Positions 13,162 to 26,001 are shown, numbered from the stretch's first letter. The stretch is 64,000 nucleotides of DNA from Thiotrichales bacterium (GCA_026709935.1 JAPOSC010000044.1:1911-65910), one strand, 5' to 3'. Notes: generated from the letters alone by a model not told the origin. Numbers and translations are program-made.

Positions 13162-13826
13162 ACGGAGGTTCGAAAGTGCTGAGATTTGTTCTGTATCCGT
13201 GTCTGTGCCTGGGCCTGGGCTTGGCCATGGGCGCGGGGGGCGCGGTGGCCGAGAACGTCGAGGTGCTGCGCGACGGCGATATCGCCGGATGGGAAGAGAA
13301 GGTCTTTGCGGGTGAAACGCGCTACGAGACGGTCCGGCGCGACGGACGGCTCGTGCTGCGGGCGACGAGTCGCGGGACCGCCTCGGGTCTGTACCTGGAG
13401 CGCCGGATCGATCTGGAGAAGACCCCGATCCTGCGCTGGACGTGGCGCGTCGACGGCACCTTGGGAGATATCGACGAACGTACCCGCACCGGCGACGACT
13501 ACGCCGCCCGGGTCTACGTCATTCGGTCACATCCGGTGTTCGCCTGGCGAACGCGGGCCGTGAGCTACGTGTGGGCGAGCACCCGGACCCCGGGCGAGAC
13601 GTGGCCGAACGCGTACACCGACGCCGTTCGTCACATTGCCCTCCGCTCCGGCGAGGAGGAGGCCGGCCGGTGGATCGAGGAGCGCAGAGATGTGCGCGCG
13701 GACTTCCGGGCGCTGTTCGGTGAGTCCGTCCGCGAAGTCGACGCGGTGGCGATCATGACCGACACCGACAACAGCGACGGCGCCGCAGTGGCGTACTACG
13801 GAGACATCACCTTCACGAGCGAGTGA
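13158..13826 (+). CDS. DUF3047 family protein
   Basis: Signal peptide; W.WRV...GDDYAARVYV and AIMTDTDN motifs. Confidence 0.8.
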   Translation: MNGGSKVLRFVLYPCLCLGLGLAMGAGGAVAENVEVLRDGDIAGWEEKVFAGETRYETVRRDGRLVLRATSRGTASGLYLERRIDLEKTPILRWTWRVDGTLGDIDERTRTGDDYAARVYVIRSHPVFAWRTRAVSYVWASTRTPGETWPNAYTDAVRHIALRSGEEEAGRWIEERRDVRADFRALFGESVREVDAVAIMTDTDNSDGAAVAYYGDITFTSE

Positions 13827-13949
13827 AGCCGGTACGTCACCGGCCGCGGGCCGCGTGCCCGCGTGGTCGGACCGACCGTGCAACCCGAATCCGATGATGT
13901 GCGGTGCCGGCGTAGTGGGCCACGTGCCGCGTGGTCAGGCTCCGTGTGG

Positions 13950-14414
13950 TCAGGCCGTGCCCCCGGCCCGGTGCTTCATTCGGATGAACACCGCGTGGGG
14001 CACGTGGATGAGGTCCGCGATTCGGCGCACCAGATTCTCCTCGTACTTGTCGAGGTGGCCGTCCGCATAGGCGACCCGCCACAGCAGCTCCACCACGTGC
14101 GCCTTCTGGTCGTGATCGAACTCCCGGTTGACGTGCCGGGTGAATTCGTAGAGGGAGGTCGCGTGTTCGGCCCGCTCCTCGGCCCGCGCCAGCAGGTCGC
14201 GCGTTTCCTCCGGTGAGAGGTCGTCGAACGCCGCCTCCAGGGCGCGCAGTACCACTGCGCGCTCCTCGGGCCGGGCCTCGTGGTCGGCCCGCATCACCTC
14301 GACCAGCAGCGCCGCGGTCGCGACGTGGTAGCCGTGCTCGCGTTCTTCGGCCTCCGTGGCCCGCCTTGCGGTGGCCACGGTGGATTCGAACAGTCGCTGA
14401 AATGCCTGGAACAT
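13950..14414 (-). CDS. TerB-family (tellurite resistance-like) protein
   Basis: ATAALLVEVMRAD, ATSLYEFTR and LWRVAYADGHLDKYEE motifs. Confidence 0.8.
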   Translation of the reverse strand: MFQAFQRLFESTVATARRATEAEEREHGYHVATAALLVEVMRADHEARPEERAVVLRALEAAFDDLSPEETRDLLARAEERAEHATSLYEFTRHVNREFDHDQKAHVVELLWRVAYADGHLDKYEENLVRRIADLIHVPHAVFIRMKHRAGGTA

Positions 14415-14445
14415 GTGGTCTCCGCGGCCCGAGGCCTGCGTCCAG

Positions 14446-14497
14446 CCCGGAAATTCACCTGCGCGCCCTCGCTTCGCGAATCGGTGAAATTTCCGGG
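14446..14497. repeat. Dispersed palindromic element, hairpin copy
   Basis: cccggaaattcacc...cggtgaaatttccggg; 14462-14497 is 35/36 identical to 38522-38557. Confidence 0.7.
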
Positions 14498-15994
14498 TCA
14501 ATGCACCGCCGCGAACATGATGTCCTCGTCGGTGACGCCGGCCGGCGAGAATTCCTCCACGATCCGCCCCTGGCGGCATACGAGGATGCGGTCCGACAGC
14601 TTGCGTACTTCCGGCAGGTAGGACGTGATGACCACGACCGCGAGCCCGTTGTCGGCCAGGGCCTGAATCAGACGATGAATCTCGTCGATCGCCGCGACGT
14701 CGACCCCGCGGGTGGGCTCGTCGAAAATGATCAGTCGCGGGGTCCGGATCAGCGCCTTGCCGATGACGATCTTCTGCTGGTTGCCCCCCGAGAGCTCGAT
14801 GACCCTCGCGTCGTCGTTGATCGCCCTGATGCCGATTTCCCCGCGCCATTTCCGCGCAAGGTCTCGCATCTCGCGCATGCTGACCGTCGAACGCCGGTGC
14901 AGGCCCGACGACAGGAGCGCCGCGTAGAAGTTCTCCGCGATCGACATGGAGTCGAAGAACCCCTCGGACTTCCTGTCTTCGGTGACGTAGACGATGCCGT
15001 CGGACACCGCCATGCTCGGAACCCGGTAACGCACCGGCTTCCCCCTGAACCTGATTTGCCCGCCGCGCGCGAAATCGCGCTTGTAGATCCCCGCGATCAC
15101 CTTTGCCGTTTCGGTCCTTCCCGAACCCACCAGCCCGAAAATCGTCGTGATCTGGTTCGAGAAGATGGAGAAGGAGTTGTTCTTGACCGCGGCTCCCATG
15201 GAAAGATCCTGTACGTCGAGGATCCGTTCGCCCGCGGGCCGGATGTCCTGGTCGCTTTTCGACTGGTACAGCGTGTCGGAGAGGCTGCGCCCCACCATGG
15301 CTCGAACCACCTCCCGGCGGTCGAGGTTGCGCGTCTCGTCGGTGAGGATGCGCTCTCCGTCGCGCAGGATGGTAATGCGGTCGCTCACCGCCAGCGACTC
15401 CTCGAGCGCATGGGAGATGAACACGAGCGAGACCCCTTCGCGGCGCAGCCGCTTGATCAGAGCGAAGAAGTGATGCTTTTCCTCGGGGGTCAGGGACGCG
15501 GTCGGCTCGTCGAAGATCAGCACCCGGGCGTTCAGGCGGACGGCCCGGGCGATTTCCAGCATCTGGCGCTGGGCCGCCCCCAGCGTCGCCACCAGCGCCG
15601 TTGGGTCCACCGTGAAGTTCAGCGACTGAAGGAACTGCTGGGCTGAAATGTTGATTCCCCGCAGCCGGTTCAGGAACTTCTCGTTCCCCAGGTAGAGGTT
15701 CTGCGAGACGGTCATGGACGGCACGAGGCTCGTTTCCTGGAATACCATCGCGATGCCCGCCGACAGGGCCTCGGACGGACTCCTGAAGCTCACCTCCCGG
15801 CCCCGGTAGCGCATGGTGCCGTCGGACGGATCGACCACCCCGGCCATGATTTTGGTCAGGGTGGATTTGCCGGCGCCGTTCTCGCCCAGGATCGAGTGCA
15901 GTTCACCTTCGAGCAGTTCGAAGTCGACATCTCTGACCGCCGTCGCACCGCGGTAGCGCTTCGAAACTTTCTCCATGCTCAGTACGACCGTCAT
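14498..15994 (-). CDS. Sugar (CUT2/RbsA-like) ABC ATP-binding protein
   Basis: GENGAGKST and LSGGNQQK motifs, two NBD halves. Confidence 0.92.
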   Translation of the reverse strand: MTVVLSMEKVSKRYRGATAVRDVDFELLEGELHSILGENGAGKSTLTKIMAGVVDPSDGTMRYRGREVSFRSPSEALSAGIAMVFQETSLVPSMTVSQNLYLGNEKFLNRLRGINISAQQFLQSLNFTVDPTALVATLGAAQRQMLEIARAVRLNARVLIFDEPTASLTPEEKHHFFALIKRLRREGVSLVFISHALEESLAVSDRITILRDGERILTDETRNLDRREVVRAMVGRSLSDTLYQSKSDQDIRPAGERILDVQDLSMGAAVKNNSFSIFSNQITTIFGLVGSGRTETAKVIAGIYKRDFARGGQIRFRGKPVRYRVPSMAVSDGIVYVTEDRKSEGFFDSMSIAENFYAALLSSGLHRRSTVSMREMRDLARKWRGEIGIRAINDDARVIELSGGNQQKIVIGKALIRTPRLIIFDEPTRGVDVAAIDEIHRLIQALADNGLAVVVITSYLPEVRKLSDRILVCRQGRIVEEFSPAGVTDEDIMFAAVH

Positions 15995-17097
15995 GTCCCG
16001 GCCCCGGTTTCCTGCGGCAGCTCCACGATGCAGTGCCCACCCTTCGACGTGGCGAATATCCGCCCCTGGATCTCGCAGCAACTCGTCATGCCGTGACGCG
16101 TGCCGTTGGCGCGGCTGTGGAAGCTCGCGGCCGGCGTTCCGTCGGCGCCGAGGCGCACGACCAGTCCGTAGGACAGGGTCGGCGCCCAGGGCTTGTGAAT
16201 CCCCATGATCTTCACGCCCCCCTGCTGGAGCGGCTCGAGAAAGCTCTCTCCCGTCCTCAACGCCGGGGCGATCCAGTGCTCCGGCGCCACGGTTTCGACC
16301 ATCTGCCGGCGGAATTCATCCTCCATGAGCACGAACTCGATGAGCCGGTTGCGTGGGGCGAAGATGCACAGCATCACACTCCCGTCCCGGAGCCGCGACA
16401 GCCTTGCGGGGTAGCCGTGGAGATTGTCCAGGACCGTTTCGGGCCGCCCTCCGCTGGAGCGGAGTCTGAGAATCCGGTGCCTCCAGGACTCGGACACGAG
16501 GATGCCGTCCGGCTCCGGCAGCACCACCGCCCCGTACGGCCAGGCCAGGCCCCCGGCGAGACACACCTCGGTGCCGCGGTCGAGATCGAGCATCCAGACC
16601 GAGCCGCTGTTGCCCGCCAGCATCAGGTCCCGGACGTTCTGCGACGGTGGCACCCGATCTGAGCCCTGGCACACCACGAGCTTCCGGGGGCCCGCGAAGC
16701 ACAGGGCCACGGGACACTTCAGGCGGTCCGGGCCGACCGACGGGAGCTCCACCACCGACTCCCCGGGTCCACGGACGATGATCGTCCCGTCGTCGAGGCC
16801 GACCGCATGGCTACCATCCGGAGCGCCCGCGAGGCACGCGATCTGCGCATCGAACTCCCTGATCACCTCCGGCTTGCCGTGGTCCGACGCCAGGTCGATG
16901 CGTTGCAGGCTCGCCCCGGACGAGCACCAGAGATCCCCTCCCACGTCGGCCACGTTGTCGGGCTCATGCAGGCTCGCCAGGACCGGAGCCTCGTCGAGCC
17001 GCATATTCGGCTGCATGGCCCCGTCGAGATGAGGGATCGTGATCGCCTTCGGTCTGAAGAGGTCCAGAAGACGGTCGAAGGCTTCATCGATGATCAA
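15991..17097 (-). CDS. Strictosidine synthase-like beta-propeller protein
   Basis: Propeller repeats (LAWPYG, ESWRHR, LHGYPARL, WIAPAL); TTG start overlapping the upstream TGA. Confidence 0.75.
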   Translation of the reverse strand: MIIDEAFDRLLDLFRPKAITIPHLDGAMQPNMRLDEAPVLASLHEPDNVADVGGDLWCSSGASLQRIDLASDHGKPEVIREFDAQIACLAGAPDGSHAVGLDDGTIIVRGPGESVVELPSVGPDRLKCPVALCFAGPRKLVVCQGSDRVPPSQNVRDLMLAGNSGSVWMLDLDRGTEVCLAGGLAWPYGAVVLPEPDGILVSESWRHRILRLRSSGGRPETVLDNLHGYPARLSRLRDGSVMLCIFAPRNRLIEFVLMEDEFRRQMVETVAPEHWIAPALRTGESFLEPLQQGGVKIMGIHKPWAPTLSYGLVVRLGADGTPAASFHSRANGTRHGMTSCCEIQGRIFATSKGGHCIVELPQETGAGT

Positions 17098-19217
17098 GGC
17101 GCACGGCCCCGATACGAGGACATTCCCGTCCAGTACGCGTTGGCACCGTCGAGCTTGTAGCGGCCGATGCGGTTGTTCAGGATTCCGCCCACGTAGAGAT
17201 AGCCCTTGTGCTCGCGCATGGAAGTCACCATCGGGTGGTGCTTCCCGCCGAGATCGCCAAGGGTGGTCAGAATCCGTCCGCTCTCGTCGAATTTCACGAC
17301 CCCGCCGGTATTGATGTTGGGGAACAGCCAGTCGTCTTTCGGGAGTCGGCGGGTCATCCTTCGTCTCGCCCCGGGTCGCCTCAGCATGAGGTCGAAGGTC
17401 GGGGTCCTCATGCCCAGCCACGCCATCCAGTAGGTGCCGTCGGACGCACGGTTGATGTTGTCGGGGTAGCCGGGCATGTCCCGAATGACGCATTCCAGTC
17501 GACCGGCCTCCGGGCCGCGGTACCAGTAACGGTTCACCCGGCATTCCCACGACTCGGCGAAGAAGAACGACTCGCCGTCATGCGCCATGCAGACGCCGTT
17601 GGGGTAGTTCAGCCTCCGGAGCAGGGTGCGCGTGCGCCCGATCTCGGGGTCGTAGACGAGCACCCGCCCCGTCGGCCGGTTCTCGACGCTGTCGGTCGCC
17701 CACTCGTGCGCGTCGTAGCGGGTGGTGGAGTCGGTGAAATAGATCCGGCCGTCCGAACCGATGTCGAGGTCGTTGGGGTCGCGCAGCCGCGCATCGTCCA
17801 CCACCGACAGCCAGGACCGATTGGTTTCCGCCGACAACCGTTCCACTCTTCGGTCGGGGGAGACCGAGTACAGCCCCATGGCCCCCACGCACACCTTCAG
17901 CGACCCGTCCCGGTCGAAGGCGAGTCCGAGAGGAAAGCCCCCGATGTGGGCGTAAATCTCCGACTCCCGATACTCCGGTGCGAAGTAGCGCACGATGTCG
18001 CCGTGCCGTGTCCCGCAGTACAGGTGGTCGTCCTCGTCCAGGATCACGTCCTCGGGTCCCTCGATCTCGCCGAGCCCGATGATCTCGGTTTCGGAAAGCC
18101 GATGGTTCAGGGCGTACGGCGTCCCGCTGCCGGGCAGCGCCGACGGGGCGGGTCCCATCGATGTGTAGACCGGCGCGACATAGACGTTGTGAAGCACCTT
18201 CTGGCGATTCTTCAGCCAGCGGATGTCCAGAATCACCGCTATTGCCAGCATCAGGCCCAGGACCATCTGGTTGGTCCCGCTGTGGTATCCCATGCGGATC
18301 AGGCTGTTGTTGATCGTGAGGACGATCAGGGCGCCGAGGACCCCCTTGGCGATGGAACCCCGGCCGCCGCCCAGGCTGATGCCCCCGACCACGCAGGCCG
18401 TCAGCGCCAGGATCTCCAGGTTGATTCCCGTGCCCGGGCCGGTCCCGTTCAGGCGGGCGCCGAAGAGGAAGCCGGCAATTCCGCAGCAGGCCCCGGAAAT
18501 CACGTAGGTCCAGAACACCGTCTTCCTCACGTCGATTCCGGTGTTGAACGCGGACCGTCGCGACCCGCCGATGGCGGTGATGTGCCAGCCCGGACGCGAC
18601 CGGCTCAGGAAGATGTGCGCCGTCACCAGGATGGCGATGGCGGCGATCAGGCTCACCGGGAACAGCCGGATCGAGCCGTCACCGATGAAGTCCCAGACCG
18701 GCGAGTCCCGGTAGGCGAGCTGGATCGCGGTTCCGAACTGGACCAGCGCGATGTCGTAGACCGCGCGCCCGATGACCAGGGTCACGAGCGTGGTCAGGAA
18801 GGCGCGGAGCTTGAAGAATCCGATCAGCACGCCGTTGAAGGCGCCGAATACCGCGCCGATGCCGACCGCGATCACGAATGCGACCGGTATCGGCCATTGC
18901 AGCAGATTGACGACCCCGACCGCGGCCAGGGCGCAGAGCGCGTAGTTCGAGCCGATGCTCAGGTCGATGCCGCCGGCCATCATCACGATCGAGATGCCGC
19001 AGACGATGATCAGGAACTCCCCCATCTGCCGGCCGGAGTCGCTCAGGCTCTGGGGGGACAGGAAGTTGGGGATGAGGTGATCGAGGACGACGATGGTGAG
19101 CAGCAGGAAGAGGAGGGGGACCGCGTTGTCGGCCCAGCGCTTGGACAGGACCTCCCCGAGCACATGGTCGGGGAACCAGTTGTACCGTGCCTTGCTCAGC
19201 GCTTCGGGGATCTTCAT
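17094..19217 (-). CDS. ABC permease fused to a strictosidine-synthase/SMP-30/gluconolactonase domain
   Basis: N-terminal RbsC-like TM region (GIDLSIGS, GGISLGGGRG); C-terminal GPED/PND/PNG/PDN propeller motifs. Confidence 0.88.
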   Translation of the reverse strand: MKIPEALSKARYNWFPDHVLGEVLSKRWADNAVPLLFLLLTIVVLDHLIPNFLSPQSLSDSGRQMGEFLIIVCGISIVMMAGGIDLSIGSNYALCALAAVGVVNLLQWPIPVAFVIAVGIGAVFGAFNGVLIGFFKLRAFLTTLVTLVIGRAVYDIALVQFGTAIQLAYRDSPVWDFIGDGSIRLFPVSLIAAIAILVTAHIFLSRSRPGWHITAIGGSRRSAFNTGIDVRKTVFWTYVISGACCGIAGFLFGARLNGTGPGTGINLEILALTACVVGGISLGGGRGSIAKGVLGALIVLTINNSLIRMGYHSGTNQMVLGLMLAIAVILDIRWLKNRQKVLHNVYVAPVYTSMGPAPSALPGSGTPYALNHRLSETEIIGLGEIEGPEDVILDEDDHLYCGTRHGDIVRYFAPEYRESEIYAHIGGFPLGLAFDRDGSLKVCVGAMGLYSVSPDRRVERLSAETNRSWLSVVDDARLRDPNDLDIGSDGRIYFTDSTTRYDAHEWATDSVENRPTGRVLVYDPEIGRTRTLLRRLNYPNGVCMAHDGESFFFAESWECRVNRYWYRGPEAGRLECVIRDMPGYPDNINRASDGTYWMAWLGMRTPTFDLMLRRPGARRRMTRRLPKDDWLFPNINTGGVVKFDESGRILTTLGDLGGKHHPMVTSMREHKGYLYVGGILNNRIGRYKLDGANAYWTGMSSYRGRAP

Positions 19218-19289
19218 TCGAAGCTCCCCGCGCGACTCCGCCCGCCGCCACGCCCGCGCAGTGCGGGCGTGGCGGGGCGGTTCCCCTGG

Positions 19290-20312
19290 TCAGGAAGCAT
19301 TGGCGGCACTGGCAGCATTGCGCTTCAGGCTCCAGCAGAACCCGGGATAGATGTCTTCCTTGGTGGTGATGGTCTCGTGGGTATAGTTGAAGATGGTCAT
19401 CGTGCCGGGCGGTAACCCGCTCTGAAGCAGGGTCTTGATCGTCGCGTTCACCGCCTGCGACTGCTTCGGCACCTCCGTCGACACCAGCGCATCGATGGTG
19501 CCCTCTTCAAGCATCTTGCAGTCCACTTCCTCACCACCGCCGGTGGTGATCAGCGCGATCTCGCCGGTCTTGCCCGCGGCCCGGATGGCGGCCGCGGTAC
19601 CCACCGCAGTGCCGTCCCAGAAGTCGATGATCGCGCACAGATCCGGATGTTGTTGCAGCATCGTGGTCGCGACCGCCTGCGCCTTGGTCGCGTCCCAGTC
19701 CGAGTAGGGCTTGGCGGCGATCGACAGATGATCATGCTGCGACACGATGTTCATGATGCCATGGTACTGGTCGATGCTCGACGCATTCACCTCCTCGCCC
19801 TGGATCAGACCGATCTTCCCGGAAGTGCCTTCTCCGCAGTGATCGAGGGCCGCCGTCGCCTCCAGCTCTCCCAGGGTTTCCCAGTTGCTGCCGAGAAAGG
19901 CATCCGTGGGGTAGGCGCTGCGGTTGTCGATCTGGATCACGTAGATGCCGGCCTTCTGGGCCCGCTTGAACAGCTTCACGTATGACTGGAGGTCAGGATT
20001 GTGGACGATGATCACGGCTGGTTTGCTGGCGATCACGTCGGTCAACGCCTGTGCTCCGGCTTCGACGCTCCAGTTGGGGTCGCGGGTCTCGAAGATGCCA
20101 CCGTACGACCTGACCTCCTTGCCGATGTAGTAGGCCCAGCCCTGGGCCAGGTCGAACCCCATGGCCATGGGCATCAGGACCACGCGCTTGCCTTCCATGG
20201 TCTCGCGCGCCCTTTCGGGGCCGGGGTCGTTGAGCTGTGCCGGTGCGGGCGCCGCGACTGCGAACGCCAGCGCACATGCGGCGACTTTCAGGATGTTTCC
20301 ACGGGTGTGCAT
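19290..20312 (-). CDS. Sugar ABC substrate-binding protein (RbsB-like)
   Basis: Signal peptide; DWDATKA and LQQHPDLCAI motifs; operon context. Confidence 0.85.
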   Translation of the reverse strand: MHTRGNILKVAACALAFAVAAPAPAQLNDPGPERARETMEGKRVVLMPMAMGFDLAQGWAYYIGKEVRSYGGIFETRDPNWSVEAGAQALTDVIASKPAVIIVHNPDLQSYVKLFKRAQKAGIYVIQIDNRSAYPTDAFLGSNWETLGELEATAALDHCGEGTSGKIGLIQGEEVNASSIDQYHGIMNIVSQHDHLSIAAKPYSDWDATKAQAVATTMLQQHPDLCAIIDFWDGTAVGTAAAIRAAGKTGEIALITTGGGEEVDCKMLEEGTIDALVSTEVPKQSQAVNATIKTLLQSGLPPGTMTIFNYTHETITTKEDIYPGFCWSLKRNAASAANAS

Positions 20313-20363
20313 GTGATTCTCCCCTTTTGGACTGACGTGGATATCAAGGCGTCGAAATGCGGG

Positions 20364-21362
20364 CTAGATGTCTCCCTGCTTTTCGGTCTGCTCGTCGCGC
20401 TGGTTCAGCAACGTGTCGGTCATGATTGCGGCCAGCAGGATGAGGGCCTTGATCAGGTTCTGGTGCGTGTCCTCGAAGTCGAGAATGGTCATCGCGTTGA
20501 CCAGGATCCCGATGAGAAGCGCACCGAAGACGACATTCCGGATCCCTCCCTTTCCTCCGCTCAGGCCGATGCCACCGAGCACGACGATCAGAATGACGTC
20601 GTAGAGGAGGGTGGAGTTCACGATCCGGGTATTCATGCTTTGCAGATTCAGGGCGACGATCGCCCCGGCCACGGATGCAAACAACGCGCAGGCGACATAT
20701 TGCAGGACCAGCATGGGCCGCACCGGGATCCCCAGATTGCGGGCCGCGGCAAAGTTGTCGCCGATGTAGTAGACGTACCGGCCGAACTTGGTGAATTTGA
20801 GGAACACGGTGGCCACGAGGCACACCGCGACGAAGACGAAGACTTCCAGCGGCACGCCCCAGAGCTTCAGCGTGCCGAGGGCGAGCAGCGTGGTGAACTC
20901 CGGAGGGATGAAGGCGACATCCTGGCCCATCAGTTGCGATCGGCCGAAACCGTACACGAACAGACCCATCGCCAAGGTCGCGAAGATCGGGGGGATCTCG
21001 CCATAGGCCACGAGGAACCCGTTGATGGCCCCCACCAGGATGACCAGCATCAGCACGAACAGGAACCCGGACCATATCGGCAGGCCCTGACCCAGCAGCT
21101 CGATGAAGTACGCAGCGGAAATGGCCAGGACGGAGACCACCGAGAGGTCGATGCCGCGGCCGATGATGACCAGGCCCATCCCCACCCCGAGGATCCCGAG
21201 CACGCAGATGTTGCGCACCAGCCCGATGAGATTCGATACCGAGAAGAAGCCGGTGAGGAAGATCGAGAACCCGATGAACAGCGCGGCGGCCATGATGACC
21301 ACCACCTTTTCCTGGGTCAGGCCCTTGCCGGGAAGCAACCAGTGCAAGCTGACCGCTCCCAT
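20364..21362 (-). CDS. Sugar ABC permease (RbsC-like)
   Basis: GRGIDLSV, TKFGRYVYYIGDN and VVLGGIGLSGGKG motifs. Confidence 0.9.
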   Translation of the reverse strand: MGAVSLHWLLPGKGLTQEKVVVIMAAALFIGFSIFLTGFFSVSNLIGLVRNICVLGILGVGMGLVIIGRGIDLSVVSVLAISAAYFIELLGQGLPIWSGFLFVLMLVILVGAINGFLVAYGEIPPIFATLAMGLFVYGFGRSQLMGQDVAFIPPEFTTLLALGTLKLWGVPLEVFVFVAVCLVATVFLKFTKFGRYVYYIGDNFAAARNLGIPVRPMLVLQYVACALFASVAGAIVALNLQSMNTRIVNSTLLYDVILIVVLGGIGLSGGKGGIRNVVFGALLIGILVNAMTILDFEDTHQNLIKALILLAAIMTDTLLNQRDEQTEKQGDI

Positions 21363-21628
21363 TGCGTCAGTCCGCTCCGGCCGTCACGAATGCAGCCACC
21401 GGCTCGATCCGGCGGCATGCCGGACATGTCGAGCCACGACATTGTTCGTCATCATGCGTCCGGCGGGGCTGACGCCCGGGTGTCCGCGCGCTCGGCGTCC
21501 CGGGTATTCCCCGGCCCCCGGTACGCCCGCGCGGCGGTGGCCTCCATTCGGCTCATGACCCTTTCCCTGCTTGCGCTGGTACCGAACCCGGCCTCCATCA
21601 TGGCACAGCAGTGCGCGGCCTTGCCAAC

Positions 21629-21664
21629 GTTCCAGGCAAAGTTCCAGGCAATGTTCCAGGCGCC
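21629..21664 (+). repeat. 3 x 12-bp direct repeat (gttccaggcaaa-like)
   Basis: gttccaggcaaa/gttccaggcaat/gttccaggcgcc in a divergent intergenic region. Confidence 0.7.
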
Positions 21665-21718
21665 GCCGGCTTCCGTCCTGTGCTTGAATGGTCGCCGGAT
21701 CGTGTCGAGGCCCATCGA

Positions 21719-22204
21719 ATGACGCTCAACCGTGTACACGCCAGACGGCTCGGCTTCGTTCTCGTGGTGCTGGCCGGAGTCTGGTTCGACCTCTCGCCCT
21801 GGGGGGCGCGGGTCGCGGACGCGGTGCTGGACCTGCAGCTTCTCGTGCTTGATGACCGGAGCCCGTCCGTGTCGGCCGGCGATGCCGCCGCGTCGCAGGT
21901 CGCGCCCGCAACGACCGCGCCGCGGCCGGAGCTTCGCCCGCTCTCGCCGGTGATGGCGACGAGCCTGGTGGTCATCGCCGCGCTGGTGTGGTGGGAATCC
22001 CGCCTGCTCGGCTGGGCGATCGCGTCGTCGGTGGTCGCGCTGGCGGCGTTGTTCGCGGTCTCGACGATGATGTTGCCGCGTGGCGTGCTGGTGCCCACCG
22101 CCGGCCCCGGGTTCGCGATCATCGCCGGGATGTTCGGCCGGCGCGCGCTCGAAGCCGTCATCGCGGCCCGCGACCGCCGCAACGGACACCGAGCGGCGCC
22201 GTAA
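21719..22204 (+). CDS. Hypothetical membrane protein (about 4 TM helices)
   Basis: ORF with one N-terminal and three C-terminal hydrophobic segments. Confidence 0.55.
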   Translation: MTLNRVHARRLGFVLVVLAGVWFDLSPWGARVADAVLDLQLLVLDDRSPSVSAGDAAASQVAPATTAPRPELRPLSPVMATSLVVIAALVWWESRLLGWAIASSVVALAALFAVSTMMLPRGVLVPTAGPGFAIIAGMFGRRALEAVIAARDRRNGHRAAP

Positions 22205-22292
22205 CGCCGCTGCGGGAGAGAGTCACCGTCAATGATGCCGGTGTCGGCGTCGAGAAGCGTCCGGACCCGGGCGTTATCCCGGCCGTGCGGAT

Positions 22293-22388
22293 TGGCGGAA
22301 GAGGGTGGGAGTCGAACCCACCAGACACGTGGTACGCGTCTCACCGGATTTGAAGTCCGAGCGCCCCACCGGGGTGCGATCCTCTTCC
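22293..22388 (-). tRNA. selC: tRNA-Sec (anticodon UCA)
   Basis: Minus strand ggaagagg...ggacttcaaatcc...long variable arm...ggttcgactcccaccctcttccgcca; 96 nt; adjacent to selB. Confidence 0.95.
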
Positions 22389-22415
22389 TCGGTCGTGTGT
22401 ATCCGCTGTCTCGGG

Positions 22416-24428
22416 TCAGTCGCCGGGGCCGTCCTCCGGGCCGAAGACCTCCGCCGCGGGCCGGCGGACCCGGCGGCGGTCGCCGAGGCGCTCCGTGAAG
22501 CCGCTGCGGTCGAAGAACTCCAGCAGCTCGATGGCGAAATTGCGCCCGATGCCCGCGTGGTTCTTGTACTCGGCCGCAGTGAAGCGCCCTTCGGACAACT
22601 CGTCCGCGAGGGACTCCGCGTACGCCGCCAGCGCGCTCACCGCGCCGAGCGGTACGAACCGGGTGCGGGTGACGGGCACCACCAGCCCCGCATTGGTCGC
22701 GCGTTTGAGCAGTGCGCCAAGCGCCGCCTCCTCGATCTTCAGTTCCTCGGCGGCCTGACGCAAGCTCGGCGGGCTGCCCTTCGCGGGATCGAGCGCATGG
22801 GCCACCCGCGGCCAGAGCCGTTCGTCGTTCGCACCGAGCGTGACCCGGTGCTCCGGGAGCCGGACGGTCACTCCGCGCCGGACGATGGTGCCGCGTTGCC
22901 GCAGCGAGGCGAGGGCGTGCTCGATGACGCCGTGGTCCACGCGGCGCGTGATTCCGAGCCGGATATCGTTCGTGTTCGCGCCGTGCAGCCGCGGGCGCTC
23001 GCGGTGGAAGACTTCCAGGAACGCCAGGACTTCGGCCTGAAGGCTCGCCCAGTGGACGGGCGAGAAGCACCGCTCGGCGCCGGCGTCCGGGGTCCGGACC
23101 GCGCCGGCGGCATCGAGGATGCGGTTCATCTCGGGGTCGGTGACGCCGAATGCGCGCCGGATCCAGCCGGTGCCCACCCCGGTTTCGGTGGATGCAAGCG
23201 CGCGGGTGACGGCCCCCGTCGGTCTCCCCGCGGTCTCGGACTCGATGCTCCGATCCGGAAGCCCGGCGGGAGCTTCGATGCCGCTGCGTTGCGGTCCGCG
23301 CATCTCGACCGCATCGAGCCAGGCGAGTCGATCCGGGCGGGCGCGCCCGCGTTTCGGGGAGAACGGGTCGATGACGGCGCCGCCGCCCATCGTGCGGGTC
23401 GCCGACTGGTCGCGGATGACGATGCGGTCGCCCGCGAGCGCATGCAGGGGACGGTCGAGCACGATCTGGACTTGCCCGCTCTCTCCCGGCGCGATGCTGC
23501 CCGCTCCCAGAACCGCGATCCGCGCCGTCGAATGCGCCGCTGCGAGGTGCGCGTGCACCGGTGTCCAGTGCCGTACCGCCCGCGGCTCGCCGGGGAGTAC
23601 GTGCAGACGTGCGTCGATGCGGTCGGTCGGGGCGTGCAGGGCGCGATCGACGATCCAGTTCCCGCGCGCGATGGCTCCGGAGCCGATATCGCGCCCCGCG
23701 AGGTTGAGGGCGCAGCGCTGGCCGGCGCGCGCATGATCGGCCGGCCGGTCCTGGGCATGGATGCTGCGGATACGGGCTTCAAGCCCTCTGGGGGTCACGA
23801 TCAGACGCTCCCCGGTGGCTGCGACCCCCGAGTGCACGGTCCCGGTGACCACGAGTCCCGACCCCTTGAGCATGAAGGCGCGGTCCACGCAGAGGCGGAA
23901 ACGGCCGTCCGCGGCCCGCGCCGCGAGGCCGAGAGCACGCTCGCGCAACGTCCGGGCGAGGGCTTCCACTCCGGCCCCGGACAGGGCCGAGATCCGGTGG
24001 ACCTCGGCGCCCCGCATGCCGGTGGCGGAGAGGAGGGCCTCGATCTCCTCGCCCACCTTGCCGACCCGCGCCGCGTCGACCTTGTCGACCTTGCTCACCA
24101 CTGCGATGCACTCGCTCACCCCGAGCAGGTCGAGGATCGCGGTGTGCTCGCGGGTCTGGGGCATCACCCCGTCATCTGCCGCCACCACTACCAGCGCGAG
24201 ATCGATGGCCCCCACGCCGGCCAGCATGTTGCGCACGAACCGTTCGTGTCCCGGGACGTCGACAAAGCCGAGCACGTGATCCGCATCGAGCGGGTGGTAC
24301 GCGAACCCGAGGTCGATGGTGAGTCCGCGCTGCTTCTCCTCCGGGAGGCGATCGGTATCGACCCCGGTGAGCGCCCGCACCAGCGCGGTCTTGCCGTGAT
24401 CGACGTGGCCGGCGGTGGCGACGATCAT
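22416..24428 (-). CDS. selB: Selenocysteine-specific elongation factor SelB
   Basis: [19 protein letters not shown]-terminal winged helix with [14 protein letters not shown]. Confidence 0.95.
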
Positions 24429-24561: not shown

Positions 24562-26001
24562 TCAAGGCGCCGCCAGACGATCGAGCTGGGTGACGAAGCC
24601 CGCCTCGTCGTCGAGGCAGCGCAGGTCGAGGGTGAGCGCGCCGTCGTTCACGCGCCCGATCACCGGGGCCGGCAGGGCGCGGAGCGCCGTTGCCAGCGCT
24701 TGCAGCTTCGACGAGCGTCCCCGCCGCCCCCCTCTGGCTCCCATCGATGGAACGCAGCGCAGCCCCGCGCTCGGCAGTCGATCGACGGGCAGGGCGCCGC
24801 TGCCGATCTGGCTGCGGCAGGCCACGACCTCTACCGACCAGCTGTCGCCGAGCCGTTCCGCGAGCCGGGGCCGGATCCGCTGCGCTTGCGCTTCGATCGA
24901 CCCGCGGGCACGGGTGAGCAGGCGGAGCGACGACAGGCTCTGCGCGAGCCGATCCGGGTCTTCATGGAGTGCGAGCACCGATTCCAGGGCGGCGAGGGTC
25001 ACCTTGTCCGGGCGGAGCGCCCGCATCAGGGGATTGCGCTTGAGTCGGGCGACGAGGTCCGCCCGTCCGGCGACGATGCCCGCCTGAGGACCGCCGAGCA
25101 GCTTGTCGCCGCTGAAGGTCACCAGGTCGACCCCGTCTCCGATCATCGCCCGCACCGTCGGTTCGGGTGGGAGGCCGTATGCGGTCATGTCGACGAGCGA
25201 GCCGCTGCCGAGATCGGAGACGAGCGGCAGGCCGTGCTCGCGGGCCAGCGCGGCGAGCGGCCGCTCGCCCACTGAGGCGGTGAACCCTTCGATCGCATAG
25301 TTGCTGGTGTGGATCTTCATCAGCAGGGCGGTGCGCGGACTGATAGCGGCCTCGTAGTCGCGCAGATGGGTGCGGTTGGTGGTGCCCACTTCCACGAGCC
25401 TGGCGCCTGCCCGCTTCATGATGTCGGGCATGCGGAAGGCGCCGCCGATCTCGATCAGCTCACCCCGGGACACCGGGACTTCCCGGCGCTTCGCCAGTGT
25501 GTCGAGGACCAGCAGCACCGCGGCCGCATTGTTGTTGACGACGATCGCGGCCTCGGCCGAGGTGAGCCGGCGGAGCCGCGGTTCGACGTGCCGGTGTCGG
25601 TCCCCGCGCCGTCCGGTCTCGAGGTCGAATTCCAGGTTGCTGGCGCCCCGCGCCACCGCGGTCATGGCCGCGATGGCCGGTTCCGGCAGCGGCGCCCGCC
25701 CCAGATTGGTGTGCAGCACCGTTCCCGTGAGGTTGAACAGAGGGACCAGCGACGGTGCGGTGACGGCCTGCACCCGGGCCGCGATGTCCGCCTCGATCCC
25801 CGCCGGATCGATGGAACGCCCGGCCGCGATTGCGGCCCGCGCCCGGTCGAGCGCCCGGCGCACCGCTTCGAGCACGAGCGGACGGCCATGGCGATGGACA
25901 AGGGACGCCATCGCGTACTCGGCGAGCAGCCGATCCACGGAAGGAAGCCCGGAGGGAGACGAAATCGGAGACACGGGTGAAGAGTGCGAAAGCGTGGTCA
26001 C
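24562..26001 (-). CDS. selA: L-seryl-tRNA(Sec) selenium transferase SelA
   Basis: NLTGTVLHTNLGRA, VNNNAAAVLL, EVGTTNRTH and FSGDKLLGGPQAG motifs. Confidence 0.95.
   Translation of the reverse strand: MTTLSHSSPVSPISSPSGLPSVDRLLAEYAMASLVHRHGRPLVLEAVRRALDRARAAIAAGRSIDPAGIEADIAARVQAVTAPSLVPLFNLTGTVLHTNLGRAPLPEPAIAAMTAVARGASNLEFDLETGRRGDRHRHVEPRLRRLTSAEAAIVVNNNAAAVLLVLDTLAKRREVPVSRGELIEIGGAFRMPDIMKRAGARLVEVGTTNRTHLRDYEAAISPRTALLMKIHTSNYAIEGFTASVGERPLAALAREHGLPLVSDLGSGSLVDMTAYGLPPEPTVRAMIGDGVDLVTFSGDKLLGGPQAGIVAGRADLVARLKRNPLMRALRPDKVTLAALESVLALHEDPDRLAQSLSSLRLLTRARGSIEAQAQRIRPRLAERLGDSWSVEVVACRSQIGSGALPVDRLPSAGLRCVPSMGARGGRRGRSSKLQALATALRALPAPVIGRVNDGALTLDLRCLDDEAGFVTQLDRLAAP

Follow-up and report, generated by a model that had tools for sequence, protein, structure and literature searches.

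We analyzed a stretch of 64,000 nucleotides from a Thiotrichales bacterium (GCA_026709935.1, JAPOSC010000044.1:1911-65910), which we will call the window. On its minus strand, at positions 14498-21362, five consecutive genes encode an ATP-binding cassette (ABC) importer with two additional β-propeller domains. In order, the genes encode a permease (permease 1; 20364-21362, 332 amino acids), a periplasmic substrate-binding protein (SBP; 19290-20312, 340 amino acids), a second permease that is fused to a propeller (17094-19217, 707 amino acids), a free propeller (15991-17097, 368 amino acids), and an ATPase with two nucleotide-binding domains (NBDs; 14498-15994, 498 amino acids). A preliminary description, made from the sequence alone, listed the same components in the same order, and the gene order and the Pfam domains bear this out.

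The last three genes (fusion, free propeller, and ATPase) overlap stop-to-start. The TTG start of the free propeller overlaps the stop of the fusion as TTGA, and an ATG at 15994 overlaps the stop of the free propeller as ATGA. Because of the ATGA overlap, this ATG is most likely the start of the ATPase; a TTG at 16081, which would give an open reading frame (ORF) of 527 amino acids, is less favored. Scans of the operon region for promoters and terminators gave nothing above shuffled sequences. Across 13800-22600, Rfam identified no riboswitch or leader, and only the selenocysteine tRNA (tRNA-Sec) matched.

Judging from family profiles, the transporter is of the CUT2 type (ribose/arabinose/allose) and is not orthologous to any system with a known substrate. 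This agrees with the preliminary description of a sugar-type ABC importer, and adds the family. Both membrane subunits match BPD_transp_2 (PF02653; they score 96.7 and 125.3 bits, where the cut-off is 26.8), and permease 1 is a CUT2/RbsC-type subunit (E = 1.7e-27). The SBP is of class I and matches Peripla_BP_4 (136.8 bits, E = 1.2e-39); it has an export signal, with a hydrophobic segment at residues 7-25 and then APAPAQ. The ATPase has both of its ABC_tran domains on one polypeptide and resembles AraG, XylG, and RbsA over residues 30-526 of the longer ORF (427 bits for the AraG/XylG-like match). None of the subunits reached the cut-off of an NCBIfam equivalog. For permease 1, the top NCBIfam matches are ribose and arabinose permeases, all under their cut-offs, and the SBP scored 76.9 bits against AlsB, with a cut-off of 335. 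The nearest solved relatives of the SBP are allose- and ribose-binding proteins, which are distant (E = 1.5e-16). We considered naming the ligand of the SBP from these relatives, and rejected this because allose and ribose binders at E = 1e-16 or weaker are too distant.

The two propellers and their predicted complex

The membrane part of the fusion (permease 2) comprises residues 1-343 (18189-19217), with BPD_transp_2 at residues 68-327. A flexible tether (residues 344-366; 18120-18188) runs from the last helix to the propeller, and the predicted local distance difference test (pLDDT) is below 50 at residues 336-352. The six-bladed propeller itself is encoded at 17094-18119 (residues 367-707), and in an AlphaFold 2 (AF2) model of the fusion, the blade strands lie across residues 378-688. 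It matches the Pfam families Str_synth (PF03088; 75.2 bits with a cut-off of 25, residues 482-568), SGL (PF08450; 54.8 bits with a cut-off of 26.3), and SSL_N (54.2 bits with a cut-off of 18.9, residues 367-410). The ESM Atlas gave the same assignment, to the strictosidine-synthase-like (SSL) proteins. We also considered that the fusion might be a frameshift artifact. We rejected this because the family is broad and its length is conserved: more than 3,000 protein clusters share the architecture, and most of them have exactly 707 amino acids. Furthermore, short proteins that are close to the fused domain are nearly all partial or are fragments at the ends of contigs, so the fusion appears to be obligatory in this clade.

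The fused domain carries the four motifs that the preliminary description had pointed out (GPE, PND, PNG, and PDN), and the hydrolase-type ligand positions on blades 1, 3, 4, and 5 are present. The corresponding residues (E389, D480-P481-N482-D483, N540-G541, and D586-N587) are invariant in 78 relatives of the fusion, as is E555. The top match of the fused domain in the Protein Data Bank (PDB) is rice TGW6 (8KG3, E = 4.9e-25), and counting through the HMMER alignment, E389, N482, N540, and N587 fall exactly on E59, N167, N226, and N272 of TGW6. TGW6 is a strictosidine-synthase-like protein that is reported to hydrolyze the glucose ester of indole-3-acetic acid (PMC10958001). Its authors describe these four residues as a "partially conserved Ca2+ site"; in the crystal, anomalous diffraction showed no Ca2+ there, and the tetrad has one acidic ligand where DFPase, Drp35, and gluconolactonase have at least two (PMC10958001). 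As the crystal of TGW6, with its identical E/N/N/N tetrad, lacked Ca2+ at this site, we consider calcium dependence of the fused domain to be doubtful, and the term "Ca-dependent" hydrolase, which had been applied to it, is not supported as written.

The preliminary description also held that these proteins are not Pictet-Spenglerases, and here our alignments agree with it. The column for the catalytic glutamate of strictosidine synthase (in HIE) is MVT in the fused domain according to the HMMER alignment, and this threonine (T665) is invariant. The profile alignment of the two propeller families places T338 of the free family at the same column. Because both have threonine in place of the catalytic glutamate, neither propeller is, by sequence, a Pictet-Spenglerase of the known kind.

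Neither Pfam nor NCBIfam gives a match for the free propeller itself; some of its relatives carry PF03088. By BLASTP, it is 23% identical to the fused domain across 268 residues (E = 1e-12). Comparing profiles with hhalign, using one alignment of 78 sequences for each propeller family, gave a probability of 99.4% (E = 3.9e-21, 296 columns). An AF2 model of the free protein, built with an alignment, has a pLDDT of 85.5 and a predicted template modeling score (pTM) of 0.85, and its best matches by Foldseek are strictosidine synthases, TGW6, and PON1, with E ~ 1e-12 to 1e-13 for strictosidine synthase and TGW6. From its sequence, the free protein is a true paralogue of the fused domain.

As had been noted before, the free propeller has PDN, CPVA, WPYG, and YPAR at positions equivalent to the ligand motifs and lacks most of the ligands. 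In the profile alignment these are homologous columns, and three of the four ligands are missing across the family. The first ligand column is D47 in 78 of 78 sequences. At the second column (position 130), 71 sequences have T, 5 have V, and 2 have S; the third (position 188) has Y in 42, N in 16, H in 8, and Q in 5; and the fourth (position 231) has A, S, or C, followed by R232 in all 78. The free protein does not have the set of hydrolase-type ligand residues.

To call this partner "apparently inactive," as the preliminary description did, goes too far. The free family has about 50 invariant columns of its own, including C128, E203/W205 (which are shared with ESW of the fused domain), and H327-S328-R329. 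It also has a conserved insertion of 28 residues (approximately 283-310) that is absent from the fused domain. Among the relatives from sponge symbionts, the ratio of nonsynonymous to synonymous substitution rates (dN/dS) is about 0.12 for the free propeller, as compared to 0.05 for the fusion, 0.05 for the ATPase, and 0.08 for the SBP and permease 1, with values of dS around 1.1-1.4 that are partly saturated. Given its own invariant residues, the conserved insertion, and the low dN/dS, the free propeller is a subunit that has lost these ligands and remains under constraint, rather than a decaying gene.

The first 30 residues of the free propeller are highly conserved and are modeled with low confidence (an amphipathic helix at 3-14 is followed by R15, K17, A18, P22, and G26). 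This segment sits where the fused paralogue has a membrane helix and a tether, which makes permease 1 or the ATPase a conceivable docking site for it. We also noticed a metagenome protein of 905 amino acids (P0493, from a Logan assembly) in which a free-type propeller (residues 17-370) is joined to a double-domain ATPase. P0493 may be a Rosetta-stone fusion, or it may have arisen by a frameshift in the ATGA overlap. As it is a singleton from one assembly and a frameshift could explain it, we did not use it as evidence for a contact.

The preliminary description treated the two propellers as partners, and structure prediction suggests that they form a heterodimer. We modeled the free protein together with residues 345-707 of the fusion, supplying an alignment for each of the two. 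The complex has an ipSAE of 0.87 (with 0.88, 0.87, and 0.83 in individual runs), while the best of three controls has 0.00. (The ipSAE mark that we used is reached by 58 of 80 solved complexes and by 2 of 110 mismatched pairs.) Between the runs, 91% or more of the contacts agree, and the pLDDT of the partner is at least 86. The predicted interface is formed by residues 602-638 of the fusion and 250-306 of the free protein, along with residues 360-361 of the fusion; the free-only loop (286-299) contributes further contacts. Three independent observations fit this prediction. The interface segments are disordered in both monomer models (pLDDT under 50). The interface is more conserved than the rest of the protein, both in the free propeller (0.81 vs. 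0.65, p = 9e-5) and in the fused one (0.925 vs. 0.852, p = 0.008). And the contacts are reciprocal: T607 of the fusion contacts W275 of the free protein and W630 of the fusion contacts L252, where W630 is homologous to W275 and T607 to L252. Such reciprocity is what one expects when a paralogous heterodimer has descended from a homodimer. Contacts on the fused side include residues 386-387, 662-663, and 680-682, which are beside E389 and H661, so the free partner may cover the pocket of the fused domain.

Based on the models, the propeller pair is very probably in the cytoplasm. At E ≤ 0.01, no chain in the PDB matches the sequence of permease 2, which leaves no solved homologue from which to take its topology. 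The general prediction for CUT2 permeases is 10 transmembrane segments, arranged as 5+5 (PMC3654945). The AF2 model of permease 2 has ten helices, of which one (267-277) is short. An invariant coupling loop rich in arginine and lysine (residues 204-233, GGSRRS...G), which would face the ATPase, is followed by four helices before the C-terminus, and this would put the C-terminus of the fusion in the cytoplasm. Four positively charged residues (R333, K336, R338, and K340) lie directly after the last helix. The free protein has no signal peptide or hydrophobic N-terminal segment, and the N-terminus of its family consensus has no hydrophobic stretch either.

A widespread operon and its acquisition

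We scanned one genome per species, or about 185,000 species genomes, for the locus. The layout is present in at least 304 of them (304 encoding stretches), and among the 80 loci that we kept, the order of permease 1, SBP, fusion, free propeller, and ATPase is the same in all 80, all of them from other species. Even in Mesorhizobium, Pseudomonas, and Binatia, the fused propeller is 74-77% identical to that of the window, and the mean column identity of the fusion family is 82% (78 sequences from Alphaproteobacteria, Gammaproteobacteria, Acidobacteriota, and Binatia). A second subfamily, about 55% identical, is found on plasmids of Sulfitobacter, Salipiger, and Paracoccus with the same layout and gene lengths. 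The free family has 342 representative clusters at 50% identity (E ≤ 1e-30). In the literature that we searched, we found no description of the permease-propeller architecture. One metagenome-assembled genome (MAG) from the Arenicellales has the same operon at the ends of two contigs, with identical match statistics (loci L002 and L003); this is likely either an assembly duplicate or a true repeat.

In the window, the five genes are, by sequence comparison, a clean, horizontally acquired cassette of about 7.2 kb (approximately 14430-21664), which contains only these genes. Four lines of evidence led us to this conclusion. In the 52 other genomes of the order, 11 of which belong to the same genus, there is no free propeller (E ≤ 1e-30), and those 11 lack the fused propeller as well (E ≤ 1e-10). 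The flanking genes terB and selB are present in all of the same-genus genomes; the gap between them is 7.9 kb in the window and just 0.16, 0.93, and 1.1 kb in three of those genomes. DNA from the sister genome aligns up to about 14430 and resumes at about 21665. Finally, the GC content is 0.59-0.67 inside this span and 0.69-0.74 outside. The nearest relatives of the operon (78-85% identity for the fusion) are in other sponge-associated MAGs, labeled as Alphaproteobacteria, Arenicellales, and Poriferihabitaceae, and near-identical DNA is found in sponge metagenomes from several studies.

The cassette lies about 0.9 kb from tRNA-Sec (22297-22388, minus strand, 73.6 bits), which is directly downstream of selB and selA (22416-24428 and 24562-26001, both on the minus strand). 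In other genomes of the genus, the terB-selB gap is 5.1-5.3 kb (two genomes), 7.8 kb (one), or 14.9 kb (one). The 5.1-, 5.3-, and 7.8-kb inserts hold different cargo, and none of the five operon proteins has a match in them. From these comparisons, the genus has a variable insertion hot-spot between selB/selC and terB. We found no tRNA-derived or other convincing direct repeat bounding the cassette.

We noticed two other features at the edges of the cassette. Between it and tRNA-Sec, a segment of about 500-575 bp (approximately 21665-22240) is 77-91% identical at the nucleotide level in four genomes of the genus. The ORFs across this segment (21611-22204 on the plus strand and 21452-22189 on the minus strand) have no Pfam match; the segment could be a small gene that escaped annotation, or a regulatory element. 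At the other edge, a TerB ORF of 299 amino acids (13950-14849, minus strand) overlaps the 3' end of the ATPase gene. The real start of terB is probably downstream of the cassette boundary, as TerB homologues from the genus align only from about 14417 downward.

The genes beside the operon vary. A CMD/AhpD-family gene adjoins it in 43 of the 80 loci, and also in Pantoea sp. At-9b, often along with a branched-chain-type (PRK13356-type) aminotransferase and an NADPH:quinone reductase. Other frequent neighbors are a glutamine-synthetase-like gene, an isochorismatase-family amidohydrolase, a formylglutamate-amidohydrolase-like gene, and an RpiR regulator. None of these recurrent genes adjoins the operon in the window, from which the CMD/AhpD-family gene is absent, and the best glutamine-synthetase-like match in the host genome is 38% identical and on another contig. 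The recurrent genes did not match any curated pathway. In Pantoea sp. At-9b, the neighbors look like genes for the catabolism of tetroses or erythrulose, and the neighbors of the Sulfitobacter paralogue encode acyl-CoA enzymes. We speculate that this diversity, together with the sugar-ester chemistry of TGW6, would fit a "sugar-X" conjugate or a lactone, with products that enter host-specific pathways.

Proposed role and alternatives

We propose that this is a self-contained, horizontally mobile CUT2 importer for a sugar-like solute, whose permease 2 carries a hydrolase propeller similar to TGW6 and strictosidine synthase on a tether of about 25 residues at its cytoplasmic C-terminus. The partner, which lacks the Glu/Asn/Asn/Asn set, would bind the fused domain via helical inserts between blades 5 and 6, and the 28-residue loop of the free family would join the interface, giving a roughly pseudo-symmetric heterodimer. 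The pair would sit at the cytoplasmic face of the transporter and act on the solute as it emerges. The most plausible chemistry would be the opening of a lactone or the cleavage of a sugar ester, so that the first catabolic step would take place within the import machine. We infer both the hydrolytic chemistry and its coupling to transport, as the preliminary description did for a lactone or ester, and we give the proposal as a whole about an even chance of being correct. In a stronger form, which seems unlikely to us, transporter and enzyme would make up one obligate machine. The two propellers would enclose a chamber below the exit of the permease, with the 28-residue loop of the free propeller as a lid on the pocket of the fused domain, and hydrolysis upon release would make uptake irreversible by chemistry and not only by ATP hydrolysis (vectorial, in the manner of group translocation).

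Several points weigh against our proposal. Flanking genes vary by host, so as far as we can judge from gene content, context yields no single substrate. No member of the fusion family has a demonstrated activity, metal, or substrate. The tetrad motifs are not proof of a metallo-hydrolase, as TGW6 has the same tetrad and bound no Ca2+ in the crystal. For the topology we depend on predictions, and one of the ten modeled helices (267-277) is short. The score for the complex is the model's own confidence, given alignments that we supplied. And a structural or regulatory role could likewise account for how very highly the propeller is conserved.

This last point leads to an alternative in which the propeller pair is not catalytic at all, and is instead a cytoplasmic module that senses a ligand and gates the transporter, as the C-terminal domains of MalK, MetN, and ModC do in trans-inhibition. 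The propeller is as conserved as the ATPase (the mean frequency of the majority residue is 86%, as compared to 80.5% for the membrane part, and dN/dS is 0.048), which suggests many protein contacts. The metal-free tetrad of TGW6 and the catabolic neighbors that change from host to host would also be in keeping with a non-catalytic module. However, the four ligand positions are invariant in all 78 sequences, along with D480, D483, D586, and E555, which is more typical of an active site, and TGW6, the closest characterized relative, is reported to be an enzyme. Also, to our knowledge, the regulatory domains of ABC importers are on the ATPase and not on the permease. We consider a purely regulatory pair to be quite improbable.

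Alternatively, both propellers might be enzymes. The free one would have a metal-independent site (D47, C128, R232, E203, and H327-S328-R329), and the pair would carry out two successive steps or a non-hydrolytic reaction (a lyase or an isomerase). The approximately 50 invariant columns of the free family are consistent with this, in that they include polar and charged residues at or beside the former ligand columns, and an invariant arginine takes the place of the fourth ligand. The free propeller is also under purifying selection, and strictosidine synthase, its top match by Foldseek, shows that this fold can catalyze reactions without a metal. But the catalytic glutamate of strictosidine synthase is replaced by threonine in both propellers, position 188 of the free family varies (Y/N/H/Q), and many of the invariant residues map not to the central pocket but to the predicted interface. 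So we view a second active site as unlikely. It seems very unlikely that the fused propeller is periplasmic and processes the solute before or during its binding by the SBP. In eukaryotic SSL proteins, a membrane anchor is followed by SSL_N and an extracytoplasmic propeller, which is the order of domains in the fusion, and if the short helix (267-277) is not a real one, then the number of helices could be odd. This seems inconsistent with the four positive residues right after the last helix, with the ten helices and the conserved coupling loop on the cytoplasmic side, with the usual prediction of ten segments for CUT2 permeases (PMC3654945), and with a predicted partner that has neither a signal peptide nor a hydrophobic segment.

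What sets this operon apart is an enzyme-type domain on a membrane subunit, with a dedicated paralogous partner as the fifth gene. ABC importers are normally treated as pure transporters, and where they have known additions, these are a binding protein joined to the permease or a regulatory domain carried by the ATPase. The five-gene unit is widespread and very strongly conserved, and it moves between phyla as a cassette. If the pair does act on the incoming solute, as we propose, then the operon would offer a clear example from nature of transport that is physically coupled to the first catabolic step, and a tractable example of a heterodimer of an enzyme and a pseudo-enzyme. In sponge symbionts, the cassette would mark a compound, derived from the host or the community, that is worth acquiring a cassette for. 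Culturable carriers (Pantoea sp. At-9b, Mesorhizobium, and Ancylobacter) make the system directly testable.

Comparison with known systems

The top structural match of the free propeller is strictosidine synthase (PDB 2FP8 and 6S5U; Foldseek E = 2e-13, template modeling score of 0.73 by target length). Helical insertions after blade 5 are common to both; the sequences are 10-15% identical. The column of its Glu309 (in Rauvolfia STR1, on blade 6) is the one that has threonine in both propellers of the window. The fused domain resembles TGW6: the six-bladed fold is common to both, the E/N/N/N tetrad is identical at the aligned columns, and neither has the glutamate of the Pictet-Spenglerases. 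Unlike the fused domain, TGW6 is soluble, comes from a plant, and has neither a transporter nor a paralogous partner. The match to TGW6 covers blades 2-5 at moderate identity and does not imply that they share a substrate. The Ca2+-dependent propeller hydrolases (PON1, SMP30/regucalcin, DFPase, Drp35, and the gluconolactonase XC5397) have the same fold and the same ligand positions on the inner strands. But these enzymes have at least two acidic ligands, while the fused family, like TGW6, has one glutamate and three asparagines, and their sequence relationship to the fused domain is weak (E ~ 0.004).

Another natural fusion of a lactonase-type propeller to an unrelated protein is the Cu/Zn-SOD::beta-propeller lactonase of Deinococcus radiodurans (PMC12362111). 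There, the fusion partner is a soluble enzyme and not a transporter, and the abstract does not describe a paralogous partner subunit (PMC12362111).

As a transporter, the system is most similar to the CUT2 family (TC 3.A.1.2), such as RbsABC, AlsBAC, AraFGH, and YtfQRT-YjfF of E. coli, which likewise have BPD_transp_2 permeases, a Peripla_BP_4 SBP, and a double-NBD ATPase of about 500 amino acids. As in YtfT/YjfF and LsrC/LsrD, there are two different permeases. The rbs operon includes rbsD, so a cytoplasmic sugar-processing function is encoded within that operon, and the operon in the window would be similar in this respect. In the literature that we searched, there is no characterized CUT2 system with a permease-fused propeller and a gene for a paralogous partner. 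Unlike the CUT2 systems above, permease 2 bears an enzyme-like domain of 360 amino acids, and the fifth gene encodes a paralogous partner for that domain.

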